A stretch of 64,000 nucleotides of DNA from Patescibacteria group bacterium (GTDB lineage: Bacteria; Patescibacteriota; Minisyncoccia; UBA6257; GWB1-50-10): assembly GCA_038065455.1 (NCBI GenBank), contig JBBTQX010000002.1, positions 6,779 through 70,778 on the forward strand, read 5' to 3'. Under the pieces are notes generated by a model. The model made no database searches. It was not told the origin of the DNA and worked only from the letters and a program-made list of their open reading frames with translations. Both the position numbers and the translations under genes were made by a program. Below, one piece after another: positions 2,297-64,000 of this stretch. Position 1 is the first letter of the stretch; the number at the start of each line of letters is the position of its first letter.

Positions 2297-3145
2297 TTAA
2301 GAAAAATAACTTTTTAAAATCTTAATGTTTCTTTTATCGGGACCGTTATTATCAAACCCGGGCACCTCCAAGAGCCACGCCTTGTCCCAAAGGCGCTTTT
2401 CCTTCGCGAGCGCTTTGAATCCCGGAAGGCCGACATAGCCTTCGCCGATATTTTCATGCCGGTCGTTGTGCGAATTCCAGAGGGTTTTGGAGTCATTTGC
2501 GTGAATGGCAACGACATTCTCCAAACCGATTTCCTTATCCACCCTGTCCGCGAATGCCTTAATATTTCCCGCGTCATATTTGACGATTCCCGATTCAAAA
2601 GCGTGGGCGGTATCCAAACAGATTTTTACGCGCTTCGAGCCGATTTTTTTGAAGATAAACGCGAGCTCTTCGATGGTTTTTCCGATTTTCTCTCCCCCGC
2701 CGGCGGTATTTTCCATCACGAGAAAACTTTTGCCCGGAACATTCGCCAAGACTTTTTTCATTCCGGATATCGCCTGATTCAGCGATTTTTCCTTATCCAT
2801 TCCAGTACTCGAGCCGATATGGAAGATAAGCCCGGCCGCCCCGATAAGTTCGGCGATTTTCAGATGATCCGACAGGTTTCTGATTGATTTCGAAACCAGC
2901 TCCGGATTCGGACTGCCGAGATTCACCAGATACGAGGCGTGGAGATAAGCCGGGCCGATGCCGGTTCTTTTTCCCTCCTCTTTGAATTTATTTATTTCAT
3001 CCTCATTCGGCAGCTTTGTCTGCCAGGTGCGAGGCGAGGCGCCGAAAATCTGAATGCAATCCGCGCCGATTTCTTTGGCGCGCCCGAAGGCCGTCCAAAG
3101 CCCGCCGGCGGTAGAAACATGCGCTCCGATTTTAGGCTTAGTCAT
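2297..3145 (-). CDS. nfo: endonuclease IV (AP endonuclease family 2)
   Basis: 282 aa. Conserved blocks GAHVS, IFGASPR, HASYLVNL, HIGS, ENTAG, CLDTAH. Confidence 0.9.
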   Translation of the reverse strand: MTKPKIGAHVSTAGGLWTAFGRAKEIGADCIQIFGASPRTWQTKLPNEDEINKFKEEGKRTGIGPAYLHASYLVNLGSPNPELVSKSIRNLSDHLKIAELIGAAGLIFHIGSSTGMDKEKSLNQAISGMKKVLANVPGKSFLVMENTAGGGEKIGKTIEELAFIFKKIGSKRVKICLDTAHAFESGIVKYDAGNIKAFADRVDKEIGLENVVAIHANDSKTLWNSHNDRHENIGEGYVGLPGFKALAKEKRLWDKAWLLEVPGFDNNGPDKRNIKILKSYFS

Positions 3146-3173
3146 TATTTAAATATAACATGGGCCCTAAAAT

Positions 3174-3258
3174 AAAAGGATCAGACGAATTAAAAAAGTG
3201 GGTAAGACTTGGCCTAGCGGCCCGGAGCGCACACTTTTTTGGTTCGGCTGATCCTTTT
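3174..3258. repeat. long imperfect inverted repeat (hairpin) between nfo and truB
   Basis: aaaaggatcagacgaa (3174-3189) pairs with ttcggctgatcctttt (3243-3258) at 15/16. Inner arms aaaaaagtg / cactttttt. Confidence 0.6.
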
Positions 3259-4273
3259 AAGATATAGCACTTCCGGGAGGGACTTCCCTGTCTGGTTTCA
3301 ATAATACCGGCCCGCCGTCATTGGCCGCCAGGAGCATTCCTTGGCTCTCCAGACCCATCATCATTCGCGGCTCCAGATTCGCAACAACGATTATCTCGCG
3401 GCCAACCATCTCTTCCGGCAAGTAAACCTTCCCGACACCGGCTAGAATTTGTCGCGGTTCCGGTTCGCCTAAGTCCACTTTTAGCTTCAAAAGCTTTTCG
3501 GAACCTTCCACGCGTTCGGCCTCAAGCACTCTCGCGACCTTCATTTCTATCTTTTTAAATTCATCAAAATTTATGTTCATATTATTATATTTTTGTACCT
3601 CAGTGCTACAATTGATTGTAGCATCGGACTTTACGAGCTTCTCCAATTGAACGAGACTCAGGGATTCTTTTTCCGTAAAATCCCCCACTCTCGTCCTTTT
3701 GAGCGCCGCGAGATACGCGCCGGTTCCCAATTCTTTTCCGATATCGCGGGCCAAAGCCCTTACATAAACTCCTGGACCGGTCACGGCACGCAGTTCTAAA
3801 TAAGGCCACTCGTATTCCAAAATCTCAATCTCTTTTATCTCAGCTTCTCTTTCCAATAATACCGGCTTCTCGCCTTTTCTGGCAAATTTATAAGCTTCCT
3901 TACCACTCACCTTGATAGCGCTGTAAATGGGCGGAATCTGCTTGATTTTGCCGATGAATTTTTTTACCGCTTCTTTGATTTCCGAAAGAGCCGGCTTTCT
4001 GTCCGACACGGAGGTTTTCTCCCCCTCCTCGTCGTCCGTGGCGCTCGTCTCGCCCAATTTAATCTTGGCGAGATATTCTTTTTCTTTCTTCACTTCAATG
4101 CCCAATTTTTTCGTAGCTTCGCGGCCGACGCCCACGACAAGCACGCCTTCGGCCAAAGGATCGAGCGTTCCGGCATGGCCGACCTTCTCGCCTCCGGTAA
4201 TCCTCTTTATGCTCTGAACAATATCATTCGAGGTTGGGCCTTTCGGTTTATAGATAGCGAAGATTCCTTTCAT
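3257..4273 (-). CDS. truB: tRNA pseudouridine-55 synthase TruB fused to a C-terminal CsaA/Trbp111-like tRNA-binding (OB) domain
   Basis: N-terminus GHAGTLDPLAEGVL (catalytic Asp motif). The C-terminal ~110 aa (KIEMKVARVLEAERVEGSEKLLKLKVDLG...) resembles EMAP/CsaA tRNA-binding domains. Confidence 0.8.
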   Translation of the reverse strand: MKGIFAIYKPKGPTSNDIVQSIKRITGGEKVGHAGTLDPLAEGVLVVGVGREATKKLGIEVKKEKEYLAKIKLGETSATDDEEGEKTSVSDRKPALSEIKEAVKKFIGKIKQIPPIYSAIKVSGKEAYKFARKGEKPVLLEREAEIKEIEILEYEWPYLELRAVTGPGVYVRALARDIGKELGTGAYLAALKRTRVGDFTEKESLSLVQLEKLVKSDATINCSTEVQKYNNMNINFDEFKKIEMKVARVLEAERVEGSEKLLKLKVDLGEPEPRQILAGVGKVYLPEEMVGREIIVVANLEPRMMMGLESQGMLLAANDGGPVLLKPDREVPPGSAIS

Positions 4274-6427: not shown

Positions 6428-8282
6428 CTTTTTTATTATAGAGGGCTTCCCCGATCTTTTGAAGCGAGGTGGAAAGTTCATTCGCCGCCGCCGTTATTGC
6501 TGCGGCATCGCTTCCTTCTTGAATTTCTTTTATTTTGGCGATTTTTGCATTCACGTCTTCTTTCACGTCTGCCGGGACTTTGTCCCCCGCGTCCTTCAGG
6601 CCCTTCTCCGCCGCGTAGACAAGCGACTCCGCCTGGTTCTTCGCATCGATGAGTTCGCGCTTCTTCTGGTCTTCCGTCGCATGTTCGGCCGCTTCTTTCT
6701 TGAGCTTTTCAATTTCGTCTTTATTCAAGCTCGTCGAAGCTTCGATTTTCACCGACTGAGCCTTGTTTGTCGCTTTATCTTTCGCGGAAACGGTAAGGAT
6801 GCCGTTCGCGTCGATATCAAAAGTTACTTCGATCTGGGGAACGCCGCGCGCCGATGGCGGTATGCCATCCAAAATGAATCTGGCCAATGTCTTGTTGTCG
6901 GCCATCATCGGACGTTCTCCCTGTCCGATGTGGATTTCAACCGAGGTCTGATTGTCCGCGGCCGTCGAAAAAACTTGAGTCTTCGCGGTTGGCATTGTGG
7001 TGTTCTTCTGAATCATCGGAGTGGCGACCGCACCCATTGTCTCAATACTTAAAGTGAGAGGTGTCACATCAAGGAGTAAAACTTCACCTTCGGTTTTACG
7101 TCCTTCTTTTTTAGCTAAAAGTATCTCGCCTTGAATTCCAGCCCCAATCGCCACCACTTCATCGGGATTGATACCTTGATGGGGATCCTTGCCGAAGAGC
7201 TTCTTCACGGCCTCCTGAATGGCCGGCATTCTGGTCTGTCCACCGACCAAAATAATTTCATTTATATCTGAAAATTTCAGACCAGCGCCCTTCGGAGTCG
7301 GCGAAGTGACCGCGTCTTTCACGAGATCAATGGAGTGATTGATCATATCGCCGACCAGAGATTCGAGCTTCGCCCGCGTGAGCTTCATCACTAGATGCTT
7401 TGGCCCCGAAGAATCGGAAGTGACGTAGGGCAGATTTATTTCGCTCTCGGCCGCCGTCGAAAGCTCGTGCTTCGCGCGCTCGGCCGCTTCCCGCAAACGC
7501 TGGAGTGCCAGAGTGTCCTTCGAAATATCGATGCCTTCCTGTTTTTTATATTCGCCCACGAGATATTCTATGATAACCTTGTCGAAATCGTCTCCGCCCA
7601 AATGAGTGTCGCCGCCGGTCGCCTTCACTTCCACCGTCTGTTCTTTAGTCTCCGAATCGTAACTCATTTCAAGCACGGATACGTCGAAAGTGCCGCCGCC
7701 GAAATCGTATACGACGATCTTCTGATTCTTTTCTTTCCCGAATCCATAGGCAAAAGCCGCCGCAGTCGGCTCATTGATAATGCGGTCCACTTTCAATCCA
7801 GCGATTTCCCCCGCATTCTTGGTCGCCTGCCTTTGGCTGTCGTCGAAGTAAGCCGGCACCGTAATAACCGCCTCATCAACCGTTTCTCCGAGTTTCGCCT
7901 CCGCATCTGCTTTTATTTTCTGCAAAACCATCGCGGATATTTCTTCCGGCTTATACCACCGGTCCGCCATTTTTATCTCCACGCCGCCCGTCGCCGATTC
8001 CTTTATCTCGTACGAAAGCCACTTGCGGTCGCGCTGGACCTCTAGATCCGAAAACTTCCGCCCGATCAAGCGCTTCACCGAATAAATGGTATTCTGCGGA
8101 TTCACTACGCCCTGCCGCTTACCCAGAAGACCTGTCAGACGCTCGCCTGATTTGTTGACTGCGACAATCGAGGGAGTGGTGCGCGCTCCTTCGCTGTTCT
8201 CCAATATTTTCCCTTCGCCGCCTTCCATCACCGCAACCGCCGAATTCGTCGTCCCCAAATCTATTCCCAAAATTTTTGCCAT
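6399..8282 (-). CDS. dnaK: chaperone DnaK (Hsp70)
   Basis: GIDLGTTNS, DLGGGTFD and other Hsp70 signatures. 627 aa. Confidence 0.97.
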   Translation of the reverse strand: MAKILGIDLGTTNSAVAVMEGGEGKILENSEGARTTPSIVAVNKSGERLTGLLGKRQGVVNPQNTIYSVKRLIGRKFSDLEVQRDRKWLSYEIKESATGGVEIKMADRWYKPEEISAMVLQKIKADAEAKLGETVDEAVITVPAYFDDSQRQATKNAGEIAGLKVDRIINEPTAAAFAYGFGKEKNQKIVVYDFGGGTFDVSVLEMSYDSETKEQTVEVKATGGDTHLGGDDFDKVIIEYLVGEYKKQEGIDISKDTLALQRLREAAERAKHELSTAAESEINLPYVTSDSSGPKHLVMKLTRAKLESLVGDMINHSIDLVKDAVTSPTPKGAGLKFSDINEIILVGGQTRMPAIQEAVKKLFGKDPHQGINPDEVVAIGAGIQGEILLAKKEGRKTEGEVLLLDVTPLTLSIETMGAVATPMIQKNTTMPTAKTQVFSTAADNQTSVEIHIGQGERPMMADNKTLARFILDGIPPSARGVPQIEVTFDIDANGILTVSAKDKATNKAQSVKIEASTSLNKDEIEKLKKEAAEHATEDQKKRELIDAKNQAESLVYAAEKGLKDAGDKVPADVKEDVNAKIAKIKEIQEGSDAAAITAAANELSTSLQKIGEALYNKKDDTQPSNNQ

Positions 8283-8327: not shown

Positions 8328-8390
8328 ACCGGGCAGTAGAAATTCGATCAGTTCTTCTGCCGTGTTGCAATCGAATTTTCACTGCCCGGT
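8328..8390. repeat. family-2 inverted-repeat element, short copy
   Basis: accgggcagtagaaattcgat ... atcgaattttcactgcccggt: 21-nt arms, 19/21 complementary. The grpE stop codon lies inside the right arm. Confidence 0.75.
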
Positions 8391-8864: not shown

Positions 8865-9009
8865 ACCAGGTTAGTAGAAACTCGATTGCAAATTAACGAT
8901 TTGCTGAATCGAATCATGATTAATATATTTAATTTGACCTTTCATATTATATTTTTCCATATCCATTGTTAATTTGACGGCAAATCTAATCGAGTTTTCA
9001 CTACCTGGC
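8865..9009. repeat. family-2 inverted-repeat element, 145-nt copy (MITE-like)
   Basis: accaggttagtagaaactcgatt ... aatcgagttttcactacctggc with an AT-rich interior. Fills the whole hrcA-grpE spacer and abuts the grpE ATG. Confidence 0.75.
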
Positions 9010-9015
9010 ATGTTT

Positions 9016-9717
9016 TTAATTTTCCATTGATTTTTCGAGCGACTTTAAGAATCTTATCGGCTTCGTGTAATCCATCCGTTTCGGACCGATGGTAATCATC
9101 AGGAAATCTTCCGGCCCGCGATTGAAATAAGTGGCGAAAACGGAAATATGGGGACTCCGCGTGACCGGGCTCTGGCCCACGAAAACGCGCGGCCAATCTT
9201 TTTCCTTCTCCCACCAGGATTTATTTTCCAATATCCTTTCCGGCAATTTCTCGAAATCCCGCACCACCTCCACCAAATCTTTCTTGGCCACGGTATCGAG
9301 CTGTTCTAAAAGTTCCTCCAGTCCGCTGCCGAAAAATTCGCCTTCGTGAGGCAGGAATCCCACACCCATAAGACCGAGTTCTTCGGCCACCTCTTCCACG
9401 AAAGATTTTCTCCCGCCTCTCATAAAATCCGCGGTCAATTCTTTTAGGACATTCGAATCCTTTTCTTTTTTCGGCTCCTCAGTCAAAAATTGTTCGGCCA
9501 AGAAGCGATAGGCTTTGTCGGTCGGAATCCGCCCGCCCGAAGGATGTTTGCGGGAAAAGTAGCCGTCTTCGGCCAACTCGGAAAGCTCCAGTCGAATCAT
9601 GGCCGGCCGGATGCCAAAATCGTAGTTCTCAAAAAGATGGTCGGAGGTGACCGGCTGGCCCGTTTTCACGAAGTCCCGCACCGCCGCTTCCAATATATCT
9701 CTGCTCCTTTCCGTCAT
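9016..9717 (-). CDS. hrcA: heat-inducible transcription repressor HrcA (short form)
   Basis: N-terminal winged-helix pattern (ILEAAVRDFVKTGQPVTS). First gene of the hrcA-grpE-dnaK-dnaJ block. Confidence 0.75.
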   Translation of the reverse strand: MTERSRDILEAAVRDFVKTGQPVTSDHLFENYDFGIRPAMIRLELSELAEDGYFSRKHPSGGRIPTDKAYRFLAEQFLTEEPKKEKDSNVLKELTADFMRGGRKSFVEEVAEELGLMGVGFLPHEGEFFGSGLEELLEQLDTVAKKDLVEVVRDFEKLPERILENKSWWEKEKDWPRVFVGQSPVTRSPHISVFATYFNRGPEDFLMITIGPKRMDYTKPIRFLKSLEKSMEN

Positions 9718-9724
9718 AGTGGGA

Positions 9725-9759
9725 ATTATATATTAGCACTCAAATGTGTCAAGCGCCAA
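9725..9759 (-). promoter_or_regulatory. hrcA promoter overlapped by a CIRCE-like operator; apparently leaderless
   Basis: Minus strand reads TTGACA, 16 nt, TATAAT, 7 nt, ATG. TTAGCACTC (9733-9741), 9 nt, then aagcgccaa (6/9 to GAGTGCTAA). Confidence 0.6.
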
Positions 9760-9765
9760 TTGATT

Positions 9766-9921
9766 GGGATACCGTGCCCCTATTCCCTTCAGCACCGGGT
9801 GTCGCGGTTCTCCCGCGGAACCGCGCACCACTAAGCTCTCGGCGAAAAATCCACCCTTCTGGGTGGAGCCGAGCTTTTTCGCCTCCGAGATTTGCTTCAG
9901 GGAACACGGGCACGGTATCCC
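9766..9921. other. GC-rich, highly self-complementary 156-nt element (candidate structured RNA or IR element)
   Basis: 14-bp closing stem gggataccgtgccc / gggcacggtatccc and nested helices. No credible ORF. Confidence 0.5.
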
Positions 9922-10099
9922 TTATTTCCAAAAAATTATTTATTTAACAAATATCCTTATTGCAACCTACATTTATCTAAATAAATATCAAATGAATAAG
10001 GGGTTATTATCCCAGAAAATGAAATTTTCTGATTAATTTTTAATGCTGCTGCGGTTTTTGCCCAATCTGAATCAAAGAGACAATGTATTATTTAATGTT

Positions 10100-10915
10100 C
10101 TACGGGCAGGTGGCGGTCGAGGTGGCGATAGCGCCAGTATTTGAAATACCCAAAAGGAAGCAGGTGCCGCCTGCCGATTTCAAAATGACGCCGTAAGCCG
10201 AATCGGAAAATCCGATATTCCCCGCCGCTTTAATGAGCGCATTGGTAGAAGGCGAAAAATTTACTCCCAAGCCGATCTGGCCATATTGGCCGCCGATTGA
10301 AACATTATTATTGAAATAGCCCGTGTACCACGGATTCACGGCTGTACCCAATGTAAGAGAACTAGAGGCGGCGGTGGGATAAACTGCCGAATCGAATTGG
10401 GCAGCCGAAACTCGAGCAATGGCTGTCTGAAGCGAACGAGTAAGTTGAGCGGAAGGAGTAGGCGAATTGTAAGTCATTGTGACGCCCAATTGAATGATGG
10501 CGAGCCCACCGGGATTTTCGTATTTGGTAGCCGTAAAACTATTGACGGTCACGTTGGAATTGGTAATGGCGACGGGCGTGCTTGATGGAATCACCGAACC
10601 CTCGCTCAAGTAAACCGCGGTACCGCTCGCGTAAATAAGGGTCGGGTCGAGCGTCGAGGAAGTCATCCTTAACTTGATAGTCGAGGTTGCGACGCCGCCT
10701 TCCATATCAATCAGGCTCGAATCGCGAACTAATTGCTGGACAGTGCCCGCGACGAAAGAAACTTGGTTGTTAACCTCATTCACGGAGTTTTGGCGAGTTT
10801 GGATCCTCGTAACCGAGAGCAAAATCGCCGTCAAAAACACCGCGCTCCCCGCGAAGATGGCGACATAAATAAGAAGTTCAATAAGTGAATAGCCTTTTTC
10901 TTCCTTGAAATTCAT
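10100..10915 (-). CDS. type IV pilin-like protein (prepilin N-terminal methylation motif)
   Basis: MNFKEEKG/YSLIELLIYVAIF class III signal peptide. S/T-rich globular part, C-terminal Cys pair. Confidence 0.75.
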   Translation of the reverse strand: MNFKEEKGYSLIELLIYVAIFAGSAVFLTAILLSVTRIQTRQNSVNEVNNQVSFVAGTVQQLVRDSSLIDMEGGVATSTIKLRMTSSTLDPTLIYASGTAVYLSEGSVIPSSTPVAITNSNVTVNSFTATKYENPGGLAIIQLGVTMTYNSPTPSAQLTRSLQTAIARVSAAQFDSAVYPTAASSSLTLGTAVNPWYTGYFNNNVSIGGQYGQIGLGVNFSPSTNALIKAAGNIGFSDSAYGVILKSAGGTCFLLGISNTGAIATSTATCP

Positions 10916-10940
10916 AGTTCTTTTCTCTTTATAGTATAAT
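10911..10940 (+). promoter_or_regulatory. candidate promoter for a leaderless GT39 transcript
   Basis: TATAAT (10935-10940) lies 7 nt before ATG 10948. The -35 is weak (ttcata). Confidence 0.4.
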
Positions 10941-10947
10941 AACACAA

Positions 10948-14151: not shown

Positions 14152-14214
14152 TAGATTAATTCTACTAAATTGGTAGGAGTTAGAATAGCAGAACCTTCCT
14201 TCTAAAACACGCTA

Positions 14215-14440
14215 TCAAATTCCCCGGCGTGGAATTTGCGCTCGCTCTCGGCCTCACTCTTCCGCTTCGCGGAAACCTTGCCCGTTCGGCCTGCGAGACG
14301 GTTTAAGGAGCAGGAAAATAGGACTGTTTGAATCCCGAAGCGAAGCGGAGGTTAAGTTCCGCATTTTCCGTCGGCGGATGATGAGGAATGAGCCTTGAAA
14401 TTATCCGAGCGGAGAGCTGTTGATGAGTGGAGAAGAAATT
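14215..14440. other. GC-rich non-coding segment with extensive self-complementarity (candidate RNA)
   Basis: No ORF of 60 aa or more in a 292-nt spacer. cttccgcttcgc pairs with gcgaagcggag; local hairpins tccgc/gcgga. Confidence 0.3.
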
Positions 14441-14443
14441 ACC

Positions 14444-17645: not shown

Positions 17646-19491
17646 TGATTCGGTTATTATAGTACCACAAGAAAACGTCCCTAGCCACCGGCACGACGTT
17701 CAAACTGCCTTCCCGCGCATTTTCCACGAGTATTAAAATGGCGATTTTGGGGTCGTCATAAGGAGCGAAGCCGACGAAAAACGCGTTGGTCTTCGTGTTG
17801 TTCGAAACCTGGGCCGAGCCGGTTTTGGCGGCGACCGGAATCGGCAAGTCATGCAGAAGATAGGAAGTGCCGTAATCCCGAATCACGCCTTCGCGCATCC
17901 CCTTCCTCACTTCCGCGAGCGCCGGACCGATCTCGGCCGAAAGGTCGCGGAGAATCGCCGCCTCGTTCTTCAAAATCGTCTCGCCTTTGATATTTTTTAT
18001 TTCATTCATCACGCGCGGCTTGTTCAGCTTGCCGCCATTTGCAACTGCATTTATGTAATTCAGAAGTTCGATGGGCGTCACCGAAAAATCGCCCTGGCCA
18101 ATCGAGACGTTGAAAGTATCTCCCAAGCGCCATGGCTCGCCTTTTACTCTTTCTTTCCATGCTGGATCCGGCAAGAAACCAGCATCCTCCCCCGTTAAAT
18201 CTATATTCGTCTTTTCGTCGAGACCGAAATTATGCCACCACTTTTTCAATCTTTCTATTCCCAAGCCTTTCTGGTCTCCGAAACCGCCGCCCACGGAATA
18301 GAAATAGACATTCGAGGAACGAGCCAGAGCCGAATATAAATCCACCCAACCCTGCGGCCGCCAATCCAAAAATCGGCTCGGATGCTCCGGGTTGTAGGGA
18401 TTCGGAACATCGAGATAGCCCGGCGAATAAATTTGATGTTTCGGATCCAAGATGCCTTCCGTAAGCGCCGCGGTTCCCACCAGGGGCTTAATGGTCGAAC
18501 CGGGATTGTAAATACCGGAAATCGCCCGATTAAAGAGCGGCTGATTGGCAGAGGTAAGATACTTTCCTATTTTATTCGAATCGAACGAAGGAATATTCAC
18601 AAGAGAAAGAACTTCGCCGTTCCGCGGGTCCATCGCTATCGCAAGGCCGGTATCCCGGCCCAAATCGCGAAGCGCTTGGCTCAAGCGGTCGTAGATATAT
18701 GTCTGGAGATCCCGATCAATAAAAGATGTAAGATTGTTGCCTGGAATCGGCTCCTGAACCGTTCTTTCTTTTTCGGTTCCGCCCACTGCGTTCGTGAGCG
18801 CAACCTTCTCACCGCTCGTTCCCCGAAGATATCCGTCGTAAAAAGCCTCGAGACCATTCCGCCCGACCTGGTCGTCGATATGCAACTCCGAATCTTTCTT
18901 CATATCACTCTTGTTTGCCAAACCAGTATAGCCGACTACGTGGGAAAATTTGAAAAGCGGCGTTTGAACGCGCCGGAACGACGGGTCTATCTCCAAGCCC
19001 GGAAGATTCGCGGCGGAGAGGGATACTAATTCATCGTGATCAAGATCGGGTTTCAAAAGAAATCGGTCGGTCAAATTCCAGTCCCGTTCCTCGAGAGCTC
19101 CAAGCACCTCGTTCTCATATAAACCCAAAGTATTCAAAACATCTCCAATTGCCATTCGCCTTTCCGCAGAAGTTTTCGGAAGAGATTTCGGAACGAGATA
19201 GGCATCGAAAGCGGGCTCGTTTTCGACCATAGCCTTTCCGAAACGGTCGTAGATAATCCCCCGCGGAGCGGGCTCCGTTTTTATATCGCTCATATTCGCC
19301 GTAGCGCGCCGGGAATAGGGTTCATGATTCAAGACCGCCAAGTTCACAAATTGGGCGAAGACGGCAAGAAAAACCAGCGCGACCAAGATGATGAAATTCC
19401 TGAAAACCCGGTCCGTGAGAGGAATTTCCAAAAGGTCTTCCTCGACCGTTCGGTCGGTCAGAATGTCTTCCAGATTAAGCTCGGGATTCAT
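17638..19491 (-). CDS. mrdA: penicillin-binding protein 2 (elongasome transpeptidase)
   Basis: STIKP (SxxK), SSN, KTGSA motifs. Follows mreBCD. Confidence 0.88.
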   Translation of the reverse strand: MNPELNLEDILTDRTVEEDLLEIPLTDRVFRNFIILVALVFLAVFAQFVNLAVLNHEPYSRRATANMSDIKTEPAPRGIIYDRFGKAMVENEPAFDAYLVPKSLPKTSAERRMAIGDVLNTLGLYENEVLGALEERDWNLTDRFLLKPDLDHDELVSLSAANLPGLEIDPSFRRVQTPLFKFSHVVGYTGLANKSDMKKDSELHIDDQVGRNGLEAFYDGYLRGTSGEKVALTNAVGGTEKERTVQEPIPGNNLTSFIDRDLQTYIYDRLSQALRDLGRDTGLAIAMDPRNGEVLSLVNIPSFDSNKIGKYLTSANQPLFNRAISGIYNPGSTIKPLVGTAALTEGILDPKHQIYSPGYLDVPNPYNPEHPSRFLDWRPQGWVDLYSALARSSNVYFYSVGGGFGDQKGLGIERLKKWWHNFGLDEKTNIDLTGEDAGFLPDPAWKERVKGEPWRLGDTFNVSIGQGDFSVTPIELLNYINAVANGGKLNKPRVMNEIKNIKGETILKNEAAILRDLSAEIGPALAEVRKGMREGVIRDYGTSYLLHDLPIPVAAKTGSAQVSNNTKTNAFFVGFAPYDDPKIAILILVENAREGSLNVVPVARDVFLWYYNNRING

Positions 19492-19616
19492 CCCGTTAGA
19501 AACAGGATGCGCTTAACAAGCACATCCGTCTAGATTCAAACGACTTTATTATTGCAATGTTCCCCTGTATTGTTTCCATGATATTTCTGAATTTGCCCGT
19601 TTCTAACGGGATTCAT
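19489..19616 (-). mobile_element. family-1 element, ORF-less copy D (MITE-like derivative of the GIY-YIG element)
   Basis: Gene-strand reading: ATGAATCCCGTTAGAAAC ... TGTTTCTAACGGG-ATG(mrdA). Shares the termini and subterminal hairpin of copies A-C. Confidence 0.75.
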
Positions 19617-28842: not shown

Positions 28843-29130
28843 ATGTATCCCGTTAGAGACATTTCTATGTATTACAATTACGTTTTAAGAAGCAAAAAAG
28901 ATGGGAAATGGTATACTGGCTACACGAATGATCTACGGAAGCGCTTTAGCCAGCACAATAGCGATAAATTCCCTCAATGGACCAAAAATCGGGGTCCTTT
29001 TGAAATCATATACTATGAAGCCTGCAAAGATCTGCAAGATGCAAGGTCGAGGGAATATTATCTAAAAACAGGAATGGGTAAACGTTATATCAAAAATAGG
29101 CTAAAGCGCTTCCTGTCTCTAACGGGATGA
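28843..29130 (+). mobile_element. family-1 element, ORF-bearing copy A (GIY-YIG ORF bounded by 15-bp TIRs)
   Basis: ATCCCGTTAGAGACA (28847-28861) is the exact reverse complement of TGTCTCTAACGGGAT (29114-29128). The ORF spans TIR to TIR. Confidence 0.75.
28843..29130 (+). CDS. small GIY-YIG nuclease-domain protein (COG2827/UPF0213-like)
   Basis: YNYVLRS..GKWYTGYTNDLRKRFSQHN...E..YLK: GIY, YIG, Arg and Glu positions present. Alternative start at ATG 28867. Confidence 0.8.
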   Translation: MYPVRDISMYYNYVLRSKKDGKWYTGYTNDLRKRFSQHNSDKFPQWTKNRGPFEIIYYEACKDLQDARSREYYLKTGMGKRYIKNRLKRFLSLTG

Positions 29131-33296: not shown

Positions 33297-33896
33297 TTAA
33301 CGCGAATAGAATTGGCCGACCACGTTTATATCGAAAGGTAGTTGCACTCCGGTAACGGGCGGTTTTGCCACGCACTCGCCTTTCAATTCCTCCGCTTTGA
33401 GCTTAAGCCACTCAGGCGGGGTGTATTGCTTCAACCGGAGTTGAATATCATCGAAAATCTTCGCCGAGCGGGATTCGGGCCGCACAGCAATAATGTCTTT
33501 AACCCTAACATAATAGGAAGGAATTGTCACTTTTCGGCCATTCACGTGGATATGGCCGTGGGAGACGAGCTGGCGGGCGATTCTCGGAGACTTCGCGAAT
33601 CCCAAAAGAAAAACCACGTGGTCGAGGCGGCTTTCGAGCTTGGTCATAATGCCGTCTTTGTCGGAATTCCGGAACATTCTCATCATCTGATGATTATTCA
33701 GCCCGTAAAGAATTTGGATTTTCTGTTTTTCCTGGAGCTGCTTTCCGAATTCGGAAACGGAGTGGCGCGCCTGGCCGTGCTGGCCCGGGCGGTAAGGATG
33801 GCGTACCATCGCGCACTTCGGCGAATTACAGCGGTCTCCCTTGAGGAAGAGTTTGATGCCCAGCGATCTTTCTTTTTTCTCTTTGATTCTTTTCAT
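33297..33896 (-). CDS. rpsD: 30S ribosomal protein S4
   Basis: S4 N-terminal Cys cluster (CNSPKC) and S4 RNA-binding domain. Start trimmed to ATG 33896; the track extension reads into the repeat. Confidence 0.9.
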   Translation of the reverse strand: MKRIKEKKERSLGIKLFLKGDRCNSPKCAMVRHPYRPGQHGQARHSVSEFGKQLQEKQKIQILYGLNNHQMMRMFRNSDKDGIMTKLESRLDHVVFLLGFAKSPRIARQLVSHGHIHVNGRKVTIPSYYVRVKDIIAVRPESRSAKIFDDIQLRLKQYTPPEWLKLKAEELKGECVAKPPVTGVQLPFDINVVGQFYSR

Positions 33897-34024
33897 CCCG
33901 TTTAGAGACAGGATACGCTTAAGAAGCATATCCGTGAAGCATTAGCCGATTCGACTTTATTGGATTCTATTGATTGTTTGATAATCATGTTATTCATAAG
34001 TTTGATGTCTCTAACGGGATTCAT
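33894..34024 (-). mobile_element. family-1 element, ORF-less copy B
   Basis: Gene-strand reading: ATGAATCCCGTTAGAGACA ... TGTCTCTAAACGGG-ATG(rpsD). Confidence 0.75.
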
Positions 34025-34030
34025 ATTTTT

Positions 34031-34175
34031 ACCAGGCAGTGAAAATGCGATTGCAAATCGTGATTGAATCGACGATTCTCGCTATTTCCAATGACCTTTT
34101 ATTTATATTCATATGTTTTGATATTATGATGGTTTTCGATTTGAATTCAATCTAATCGCATTTCTACTGCCTGGT
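34031..34175. repeat. family-2 inverted-repeat element, 145-nt copy
   Basis: accaggcagtgaaaatgcgatt ... aatcgcatttctactgcctggt. The interior is alignable with the copy at 8865-9009. The right end overlaps the rpsK stop codon. Confidence 0.75.
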
Positions 34176-35181: not shown

Positions 35182-35298
35182 TTATCCTTGTCTTTGTTTA
35201 TGCCTCGGGTTCTTGGCACATATGACGTAAACCCGCCCTTTTCGACGGACGGTCTTGCAAACGCTGCAGATTTTTTTTACCGATGCTCTGACTTTCAT
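35182..35298 (-). CDS. rpmJ: 50S ribosomal protein L36
   Basis: Hand-translated: [38 protein letters not shown] (38 aa). Absent from the ORF track because it is too short. Confidence 0.9.
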
Positions 35299-35424
35299 CC
35301 CGTTAGAGACAGGATACGCTTAAAAAGCGCATCCGTGATATGTCGCTTGGTTTGATTATTCCGACCTGTTGGTTATTCATATTGATACATTATTCAAAAT
35401 TTGTTTGTCTCTAACGGGATTCAT
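35296..35424 (-). mobile_element. family-1 element, ORF-less copy C
   Basis: Gene-strand reading: ATGAATCCCGTTAGAGACA ... TGTCTCTAACGGG-ATG(rpmJ). Confidence 0.75.
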
Positions 35425-47142: not shown

Positions 47143-47172
47143 CTAGGTGGTGTCTTTAAAGACACCACCTAG
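47143..47172. repeat. 30-nt perfect palindrome, copy 1
   Basis: ctaggtggtgtctttaaagacaccacctag. Lies 9 nt upstream of the ATG at 47134 and overlaps its AGGA Shine-Dalgarno. Confidence 0.8.
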
Positions 47173-62829: not shown

Positions 62830-64000
62830 TTATCCCCAGGGTGGTGTCTTTAAAGACACCACCCTGTTTTTCGACGTTTTCAAAATGAAAGTTGCGATTG
62901 CCAGATAATAAGCAACAATAAAAATCCAACCCAAAGACACGCTTAGAGATAGATTGAAGTTGCCGAAGAATTCTATCAGTCCCGTCTCGACTTTCAATAG
63001 CGGCCAAACGAACCAGCCGGCGATGAGCGCGAGATAATGCGAGATGCCGGAGAGAACGGCGACGGCGAAGCCGAGCATCATCGTATACGGAATAAGCTCC
63101 AGAACCAGAACATTCGAGATGAGCGAAATAGGCGAAAAATTCCCGAAGTTCTGGATTAATATCGGAAGAACCATAAGCTGAGCGGAGCCGGTCATCAGGA
63201 GATTCTCCCGCCAGGAAAAAGTTTCTTTTTTCCCGCCGACCGGCAAATTGAAAAGCTCTTCGAGCGCCGGCTTCAAATATACGATGCCGATGAGCGCGAG
63301 GAATGAAAGTTCAAAACCGGCATCGAATACCAACACCTTGGGATTTATAAGCACCATCAAGAGTCCCGCTAAAGTTATGGCATTCCGCGGATTGAAGATG
63401 CGGCCGCTCTCGGTCGCAACGACGACGAGCGCGCCCATAATCGCCGCTCGCACGACCGATGCCTCCGCTCCGGTCATAAGCACGAAGGCGACAAGGAAAA
63501 TGAAGGCGACAATAAAAGCAGTCCTTCTTTTCAAGAATGAAGTGAGTAAAGCCATTGCCGCCACGATGACGATCGAGACGTTGTAGCCCGAAAGCGCGAC
63601 CAGGTGCGTCGTGCCGCTTATCTGCATCGCCACTTTGAACTCGGGAGAAAAATCGCTCCGCTCACCCAAGGTCAGGCCGGAAAGAAAAGCCGCTTCCTCG
63701 ACCGGCAATATCTCTCCGAAATTATCCACAGTGGAATTCTTGAGATTGAATAAAAAAGATTTGAAGGGCGCGCCCTTATCTTCCGCGATTAGCTTAACTT
63801 CGGGATATGAAACAATTCCGCTTATTCCCTCCTTCGCCAGATATTGGGCATAGCCTGCCTGCGCAGGCAGGCCTCCCAATTCCGGTTTTTTGACCGCGCC
63901 ATTTACCGAAATCAAGTCGCCATAATGGAATTCGGGATAGCGCGGAGCATTTACGAGAATTTTCACCTTGGCGCCGGAAAATTCCGTTTGGACGTAAAGA
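62830..64000 (-). CDS. comEC: ComEC/Rec2 competence-channel part (OB-like + multi-TM competence domain), 5'-partial
   Basis: Competence-domain TM pattern. The reading frame stays open upstream of GTG 63966 to the window edge. Confidence 0.8.
   Translation of the reverse strand, partial: LYVQTEFSGAKVKILVNAPRYPEFHYGDLISVNGAVKKPELGGLPAQAGYAQYLAKEGISGIVSYPEVKLIAEDKGAPFKSFLFNLKNSTVDNFGEILPVEEAAFLSGLTLGERSDFSPEFKVAMQISGTTHLVALSGYNVSIVIVAAMALLTSFLKRRTAFIVAFIFLVAFVLMTGAEASVVRAAIMGALVVVATESGRIFNPRNAITLAGLLMVLINPKVLVFDAGFELSFLALIGIVYLKPALEELFNLPVGGKKETFSWRENLLMTGSAQLMVLPILIQNFGNFSPISLISNVLVLELIPYTMMLGFAVAVLSGISHYLALIAGWFVWPLLKVETGLIEFFGNFNLSLSVSLGWIFIVAYYLAIATFILKTSKNRVVSLKTPPWG
62837..62866. repeat. 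30-nt perfect palindrome, copy 2
   Basis: cagggtggtgtctttaaagacaccaccctg. The central 24 nt are identical to copy 1. Lies in the last codons of the upstream comEC ORF. Confidence 0.8.

Follow-up and report, generated by a model that had tools for sequence, protein, structure and literature searches.

The window analysed here is a 64-kb stretch of DNA from a groundwater Minisyncoccia (CPR) bacterium. The same HrcA protein is carried on contigs of Hainich aquifer assemblies, and the nearest named HrcA relatives belong to MAGs of Minisyncoccia, Jorgensenbacteria, and Paceibacterota. On the minus strand of the window, a pilin-like gene is followed by an intergenic spacer and then by hrcA, grpE, and dnaK; the spacer holds a 156-nt self-complementary element, designated type A below. 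The features of the locus, in minus-strand order, are as follows.

10945-10100, minus strand: pilin-like gene with a sub-threshold prepilin N-terminal methylation motif (N_methyl match of 17.9 bits against a cut-off of 21.2), whose allele travels together with the element.
10099-9718, minus strand: intergenic spacer of 382 nt between the pilin-like gene and hrcA.
9922..10099, minus strand: AT-rich spacer (25-31% GC) from the pilin-like stop codon to the element, part of the same strain-variable tract.
9766..9921, minus strand (the better-folding strand, matching type B): Y-shaped element of type A, 156 nt, recognised by its fold, z-scores, and covariance-model matches.
9893..9921: terminal inverted-repeat arm, the minus-strand 5' half of the closing stem, starting with GGGATACC.
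9837..9890, minus strand: composite hairpin domain with alternative pairings and the motifs UCUCGGAGGC and GCCGAGAGC, co-linear with type B.
9845..9867, minus strand: intrinsic-terminator-like site, a 7-bp stem at 9867..9850 (5/7 G-C) with a 4-nt loop, followed by T5.
9798..9829, minus strand: 12-bp hairpin with one bulge, GGTG-CGCGGTTC / GAACCGCG-CACC, placed by the fold and by alignment to the type B model R2.
9766..9794: terminal inverted-repeat arm, the minus-strand 3' half of the closing stem, ending with GGTATCCC.
9725..9759, minus strand: fixed right-hand boundary of the variable tract, comprising the CIRCE-like operator and the hrcA promoter.
9759-9733, minus strand: CIRCE-like operator TTGGCGCTT-N9-GAGTGCTAA, overlapping the hrcA promoter.
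9752..9725, minus strand: perfect hrcA promoter TTGACA-16-TATAAT (-35 at 9752-9747, -10 at 9730-9725).
9717-9016, minus strand: hrcA (TIGR00331, E 3e-32).
8864-8379, minus strand: grpE.
8282-6399, minus strand: dnaK.

Because the hrcA promoter lies at 9752..9725 on the minus strand, the element is upstream of the hrcA transcript, as the preliminary description of this DNA had predicted, and only 6 nt separate it from the CIRCE-like operator. The left arm of this operator (9733-9759) is degenerate both here and in the closest relatives, with TTGGCGCTT in place of TTAGCACTY; the right arm is canonical, and the -35 box of hrcA lies inside the operator. The element had also been said to stand out against AT-rich flanks, which is true of positions 9922-10099 and does not hold on the hrcA side, where the flank has 48-57% GC.

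All helices of the preliminary description were recovered in place. Together they form a three-way junction, in which a 26-bp interrupted closing stem encloses two hairpin domains. The outermost 14 bp of this stem are perfect (9766-9779 paired with 9908-9921), and it extends to 29-nt terminal inverted repeats that are 86% complementary (9766-9794 / 9893-9921). One domain is the 9798..9829 hairpin, with a loop resembling the CGCUGG loop of type B, a module of related lineages considered below. The other, 9837-9890, centres on a TCCACCC/GGGTGGA hairpin (9850-9867) and can pair alternatively as GGCGAAAAA/TTTTTCGCC or as CTCGGC/GCCGAG. The minimum free energy of the RNA is -90.0 kcal/mol on the plus strand (z -8.56) and -98.0 kcal/mol on the minus strand (z -9.47), and none of 200 dinucleotide shuffles matched the element. 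When 4912 overlapping 156-nt segments of the 64 kb were folded on both strands and energy was regressed on G+C, the element was the top GC-corrected outlier on either strand, at -5.6 sd (plus) and -7.5 sd (minus). The 156-nt fold is thus confirmed as real and extreme, the most stable one in the 64-kb window.

Both hrcA and the pilin-like gene are read in the sense of the element's minus strand. This strand is more stable by 8 kcal/mol because the mismatches between the arms read there as one G-U pair and a tandem GA/AG loop. With DNA folding parameters, the two strands are nearly equal (-53.7 and -56.2 kcal/mol). Watson-Crick pairs make up 56-58 of the 57-59 pairs in the fold. Four reading frames of 60-90 aa do span the element, so that the claim of no credible ORF had to be qualified; their translations, however, have no homologue by exact look-up or in a search of 5.8 billion proteins. 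An assembly artefact is ruled out, since the identical sequence is present in several independent assemblies (at least three others, those of contigs L001, L008, and L009).

A search of Rfam had been proposed as a check, and the element matches no Rfam family. At the gathering threshold, Rfam 15 reports only a tRNA in the whole window; with E-values allowed up to 10, region 9600-10150 yields only noise far under the thresholds, and five related loci give no match. Further copies were sought at several levels. The terminal 14-mer has no other site in the window even at 2 mismatches, and neither blastn nor nhmmer nor R1, a covariance model built from type A on the minus strand (default filters), finds a second copy there. 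The exact element likewise has no second copy among 45 related loci. Neither 185,579 GTDB species genomes nor IMG/VR contain a match to a terminal pattern of 21-23 nt. Three matches to it in JGI metagenomes are lone 21-mers in unrelated GC-rich sequence, without the partner arm, and are therefore ascribed to chance. Blastn against phage and plasmid collections gives no match to the element, and nothing relevant was found in the literature on MITEs or structured intergenic repeats in CPR bacteria.

A number of candidate identities were rejected. The element resembles the msr-msd ncRNA of retrons in its a1/a2-like inverted repeats flanking hairpins and in its length of about 150 nt, but no reverse transcriptase gene adjoins it, its neighbours being hrcA and the pilin-like gene. 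The RYYYAAC/GTTRRRY ends of an integron attC site are absent from its sequence; the window has no similar coding sequence, as a DGR template repeat would demand; and there is no Rfam signal for hammerhead or other small ribozymes, SRP RNA, 6S RNA, or RNase P RNA. The heptamer GGATAYC was considered as a genome-wide signal. It has 24 sites versus 13.6 expected, a count that is uninformative because the sites are mostly in coding sequence.

Two strain types can be told apart among the contigs that carry the identical HrcA protein. The first (L001, L008, L009) is 100% identical to the window, and the second, comprising L002-L007 and the long-read contig L041, is a co-occurring sister strain. In the sister strain, the space from the pilin stop codon to the left arm of CIRCE is filled by unrelated sequence. 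A sliding identity profile of the two types gives 99-100% identity in the PMT gene, 82-94% in the pilin-like gene, an unalignable intergenic spacer, and again 99-100% across hrcA-grpE-dnaK. A diverged pilin and an unalignable spacer between such flanks indicate that a tract of ~1.2 kb has been exchanged. The best reading of this pattern is that the pilin allele and its 3' flank were swapped between near-identical strains by homologous recombination. To the right, the exchanged tract ends where conserved sequence first resumes, at the CIRCE operator/promoter of hrcA, and the element and the pilin allele are co-inherited. The pattern also suggests that the pilin-like gene (10100-10945) is under allele replacement or diversifying selection. 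Elsewhere in the window, the lineage of L023 is mostly ~75-90% identical to the present sequence and reaches 99-100% over ~1 kb in dnaK (about 6776-7775), a tract that looks like a product of recent inter-lineage recombination.

The comparison was widened to the hrcA-upstream regions of relatives with HrcA identity of 66-96%. The variable sequence stops at the CIRCE-like inverted repeat in every relative compared, and the type A sequence is absent from every related genome sampled. The slot upstream of CIRCE is occupied in these loci as follows.

L040: empty (stop codon, 5 nt, CIRCE).
L038: a plain terminator only.
L039: filler of 41 nt.
L023-26 and L031: structured module of type B, 141-148 nt.
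L027/28: a B/C hybrid.
L002, L029, L030, and L035: module of type D, about 250 nt.
L035 and L042: arrays of repeated modules.
L036/37: structured insert of ~220 nt (about 2780-3000), here between the hrcA promoter and the start codon.

The arrays of L035 (2226-3000) and L042 (2304-3000) are spacers of 700-775 nt with 3-4 tandem ~80-nt modules that contain GAGCATYGCC; both spacers also hold short perfect palindromes. No module is present in the more distant CPR genomes L010-L012. The slot is thus a hotspot that holds different structured modules in different strains, and its ancestral state was probably empty. Types B and D and the core of type C each recur at a second locus of the window (about 14200-14304 on the minus strand, 14305-14384, and 3194-3242, respectively), which identifies the modules of the slot as dispersed repeats. 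The type A element itself is strain-specific and, being absent from the sister strain and the relatives, dispensable. Absence of conserved sequence or structure in related genomes had been named as a refuting outcome, which bears on the small-RNA reading. The sequence is not conserved, being missing both at the orthologous site of the sister strain, with flanks of 99-100% identity, and in the sampled relatives; the structure is kept in part, in type B.

Type B has the same architecture as type A: its closing stem, of 16 bp, encloses a pair of hairpin domains, and its fold has z -6 to -7.5. Copies lie at the following positions.

L023, 2800-2947: type B.
L031, 2288-2433: type B.
Window, 14188..14317, minus strand: truncated type B copy without the GGATACC closing stem, in another intergenic region.

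The truncated copy is 87% identical over 106 nt to type B of L023 and scores 118 bits with R2, the covariance model built from type B. It lies in the 292-nt spacer 14152-14443, between a seryl-tRNA-synthetase-like ORF and a PKD-domain ORF. This spacer is a mosaic of the truncated type B (14188-14317, minus) and a 77-nt piece of type D (14305-14381, plus) that matches L002 at 97% identity; in L038, the gap at the orthologous place measures 13 nt.

Several observations connect types A and B. The heptamer ends GGATAYC / GRTATCC are common to both, and the motifs GGATACC, UCUCGNAGGC, GCCGAGAGC, and GGTATCC are co-linear in the two (shuffle p about 0.008 against L023); within the 64 kb, UCUCGNAGGC is found only in the type A element and the type B copy. 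With filters off and a shortened calibration, R1 recognises full-length type B in L031 (35.1 bits, E about 5e-5) and L023 (32.8 bits). These matches are on the hrcA-sense strand only, and generic palindromes score at most 15 bits; the truncated copy is matched weakly (14197-14309, 14.9 bits). Conversely, R2 matches type A at 9768-9918 on the minus strand only, with 23.5 bits and an E of about 3e-4 under shortened calibration. Part of this score is generic, since the antisense strand of type B itself reaches about 22 bits with R2; the best R2 score in 350 kb of unrelated viral sequence is 18.8 bits. Motif scans for type B in IMG/VR gave 37 chance matches, none of which was confirmed by R2. The global primary similarity of type A to type B is not significant (z 0.6-3.0). 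Taken at this strength, homology of types A and B is rather more probable than its absence, and a tentative 'type A/B' family would be defined by a GGAUAYC/GRUAUCC closing stem, a UCUCGNAGGC...GCCGAGAGC domain, and a second hairpin whose loop reads CGCNGG, with order and orientation constant.

Across three type B sequences, 12 of 51 pairs have changed on both sides, a number that none of 500 shuffles reaches and that compares with 0-3 in slid controls; several G-U pairs are kept on the hrcA-sense strand. In view of this covariation and the lack of an Rfam match, type B is a candidate new family of structured elements. An RNA-level role is also conceivable for the A/B family, since it is type B, in the same slot of two other lineages, that shows the covariation.

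Other repeats are present in the window. Family 'Y' is IR-bounded, with ends CC(A/G)GG(C/T)AGTGAAAAYTCGAT, and has copies at 8329-8389, about 8867-9008, and 34032-34174. One copy replaces the last grpE codons, with an apparent TCAA duplication. Another lies exactly at the grpE start codon, where it creates a 46-aa ORF and is accompanied by an apparent CATG/TATG duplication; the duplications at the two sites are 3-4 bp long. The grpE insertions of this family are found in the window and in L029 and are absent from L023, L031, L038, L039, and L040. Family 'X', also IR-bounded and with ends ATCCCGTTAGAGACAGG, has four copies of about 123-282 nt in the 64 kb (19490-19612, 28847-29128, about 33893-34020, 35297-35420), one of which adjoins a family Y copy. 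A hairpin element at 3173-3259 shares with L027 (about 2862-2941) a 47-nt core, AAAAGTGGGTARGACTTGGCYTAGCGGCCCGGAGCGCACACTTTTT, that is 94% conserved; the arms around this core are unrelated between the two loci and self-complementary in both. Finally, 47143-47172 and 62837-62866 are perfect 30-nt palindromes with the core GGTGGTGTCTTTAAAGACACCACC, followed by T runs, and L035 has one like them ahead of hrcA. The GGTGGTGTCTTTAAAGACACCACC-core palindromes probably represent a repeated module of bidirectional terminators.

Among described families, none matches the element, although it is of a familiar sort, an intergenic repeat of palindromic structure that may have been co-opted for termination. 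The ERIC/IRU elements of enterobacteria (about 127 nt) and the Correia/NEMIS elements of Neisseria (about 100-156 nt) are co-transcribed with genes. The element resembles them in its size class (100-160 nt), its non-coding intergenic position, the terminal inverted repeats that form a long stem, and its presence or absence among strains; by analogy, it may be able to end or stabilise the neighbouring mRNA. It differs in several respects: Rfam, phage, and plasmid searches reveal no sequence similarity; it is Y-shaped with two GC-rich hairpins, where ERIC and Correia form one long hairpin; the 64 kb hold one full and one related truncated copy; and it belongs to a CPR host and has no clear TA-type target duplication. 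The sequences on its two sides, AATAA and AATCA, agree at 4 of 5 positions, and in the strains lacking the element the whole spacer is replaced.

With MITEs, the element shares small size, the 29-nt terminal inverted repeats (86% complementary, outer 14 bp perfect), and the lack of an ORF, and it sits among genuine IR-bounded insertions, those of families X and Y. However, no dispersed copies were found, with one in the 64-kb window, where the truncated sequence at 14188-14317 is only a distant relative, and none in other loci or public collections, and its interior is GC-rich and fully structured, whereas the interiors of families X and Y are AT-rich and unstructured. REP units are 20-40 nt long, begin with 5' GTAG, and are highly repeated. 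The element recalls REP/BIME sequences as a component of strain-variable mosaics of palindromic modules in spacers, and stabilisation of the upstream mRNA is possible for such elements; unlike them, it has 156 nt, starts with GGGATACC, and is low-copy. Lastly, it shares with intrinsic terminators the internal 7-bp GC-rich hairpin and U5, in sense orientation downstream of a gene, but this part takes up only 23 of the 156 nt, and the outer helices and the second hairpin are foreign to terminator design.

From the pilin-like stop codon (10100) to the hrcA promoter, that site, 9845..9867, is the only terminator-like one. Its stem starts 233 nt past the stop codon, co-oriented with the gene, and T5 occupies 9849-9845 on the minus strand; judged by sequence features, it agrees with an intrinsic terminator in its GC-rich hairpin, U tract, downstream position, and sense. 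In other alleles, the terminator is nearer to the upstream gene than in type A, and type B has no conserved counterpart of the internal terminator. The support for a terminator role is one consensus match. In its present orientation, the element probably terminates transcription of the pilin-like gene or insulates the HrcA-controlled promoter from it. An elaborate terminator for the pilin gene had been one of the three readings offered initially, and the sense hairpin with T5 and the co-inheritance with the pilin speak for it. Yet a simple hairpin is enough in relatives, the 26-bp stem is left unexplained, and type B lacks the site.

The reading that we prefer, and to which we give about an even chance, is that the element is a strain-specific, dispensable member of a new palindromic family that has been exchanged with the pilin cassette and may end pilin transcription. 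The element would be a diverged member of the type A/B family of intergenic palindromes, a family restricted to the lineage; its sequences are GC-rich, Y-shaped, and about 145-156 nt long, and in each a closing stem with GGAUAYC...GRUAUCC ends surrounds two hairpin domains. The element lies in the 3' flank of the pilin-like gene and would be swapped with the pilin cassette in a recombination and insertion hotspot, having arrived or persisting there as a repeat-type element (MITE-, ERIC-, or Correia-like) and not as a gene. Once transcribed with the pilin-like gene, the RNA would fold, and the internal 7-bp hairpin with U5 would stop transcription. Such termination may insulate the HrcA-controlled promoter 90-100 nt downstream and shield the 3' end of the mRNA.

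An IR-bounded element is the best supported of the three initial readings, in view of the hotspot slot and the other IR-bounded families in the window. The pairing is almost exclusively Watson-Crick, as it is in palindromes that are young or act at the DNA level, and the genome does hold genuine IR-bounded insertions that have target duplications and are present in some relatives but absent from others. Several points count against this explanation: the exact element is single-copy in the window, the 45 related loci, GTDB, JGI, IMG/VR, phages, and plasmids; a clean empty site with the same flanks and a clear target-site duplication are absent (AATAA versus AATCA); and efficient termination at U5 would mean that the closing stem never forms in RNA.

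The single copy number in everything searched, together with the perfect stems, is accommodated if the element is a local, non-mobile 3' structure of the pilin allele, serving as terminator, stabiliser, or insulator, that arose where it stands, for instance through template switching, and has no relation to type B. Its co-inheritance with the pilin allele, the sense hairpin with U5 as the sole terminator-like site in the spacer, and the terminators found in the same spacer of other alleles all agree with such an origin. Termination, however, needs neither the 26-bp closing stem nor the second hairpin, an AT-rich gap of about 180 nt precedes the element, and its ends, motifs, and architecture are common to type B in the same orientation, so that a purely local origin is unlikely, though not far-fetched.

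The resemblance to type B can also be explained if the minus strand of the element encodes an independent small RNA whose promoter lies in the AT-rich spacer; the transcript would form a three-way junction and act in trans or bind a protein, and types A and B would be fast-evolving alleles of it. A type B at the same position with covariation and conserved sense-strand G-U pairs, reciprocal and orientation-specific covariance-model matches, the extreme fold, and the preference for the minus strand given by the G-U pair and tandem GA loop are all in line with this, and a weak TTGCAA-17-TAAATA lies about 20 nt upstream. A small RNA had indeed been among the initial suggestions, but an independent, conserved one is not supported: no promoter passes the consensus scan on either strand, type B of L031 starts about 34 nt past the upstream gene, which leaves scant room for one, no Rfam family matches, and the element is missing in the near-identical sister strain and several relatives. 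Moreover, near-perfect Watson-Crick pairing is atypical of an old functional RNA, and the small RNA gene is accordingly regarded as rather unlikely.

A broader alternative is that types A, B, and perhaps D constitute undescribed RNA elements of Patescibacteria, selected for structure and rapidly diversifying, with a real function in cis or trans; we consider this distinctly improbable. It is with the same slender probability that such elements, exchanged with pilin alleles and always placed against CIRCE, would be neither selfish nor neutral. If they were of this class, they may set the read-through from the pilin operon into the heat-shock operon or, alternatively, serve as a protein- or phage-directed decoy. 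Finally, a DNA-level cruciform or protein-bound palindrome 6 bp upstream of CIRCE and the -35 box, tuning the hrcA promoter or acting as a recombination site for the pilin cassette, is scarcely credible. In its favour, the strands fold nearly equally, also with DNA parameters, a module abuts CIRCE in every module-bearing lineage, and the recombination junction is the edge of the element, but the promoter and CIRCE are intact and identical whatever module is present or none, the junction is more simply the first conserved sequence usable for homologous recombination, and no recombinase or binding protein is implicated.

For screens of non-coding RNA, the locus is a caution that the most stable fold in 64 kb need not be a conserved RNA gene. 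What is unusual in the element is its Y shape, low copy number, CPR host, and fixed place against CIRCE. The genomes of CPR/Patescibacteria are small and streamlined, yet at this locus large structured non-coding modules turn over fast between strains that are otherwise 99-100% identical, and this turnover is coupled to the exchange of a pilin allele and has a heat-shock operator as its boundary.
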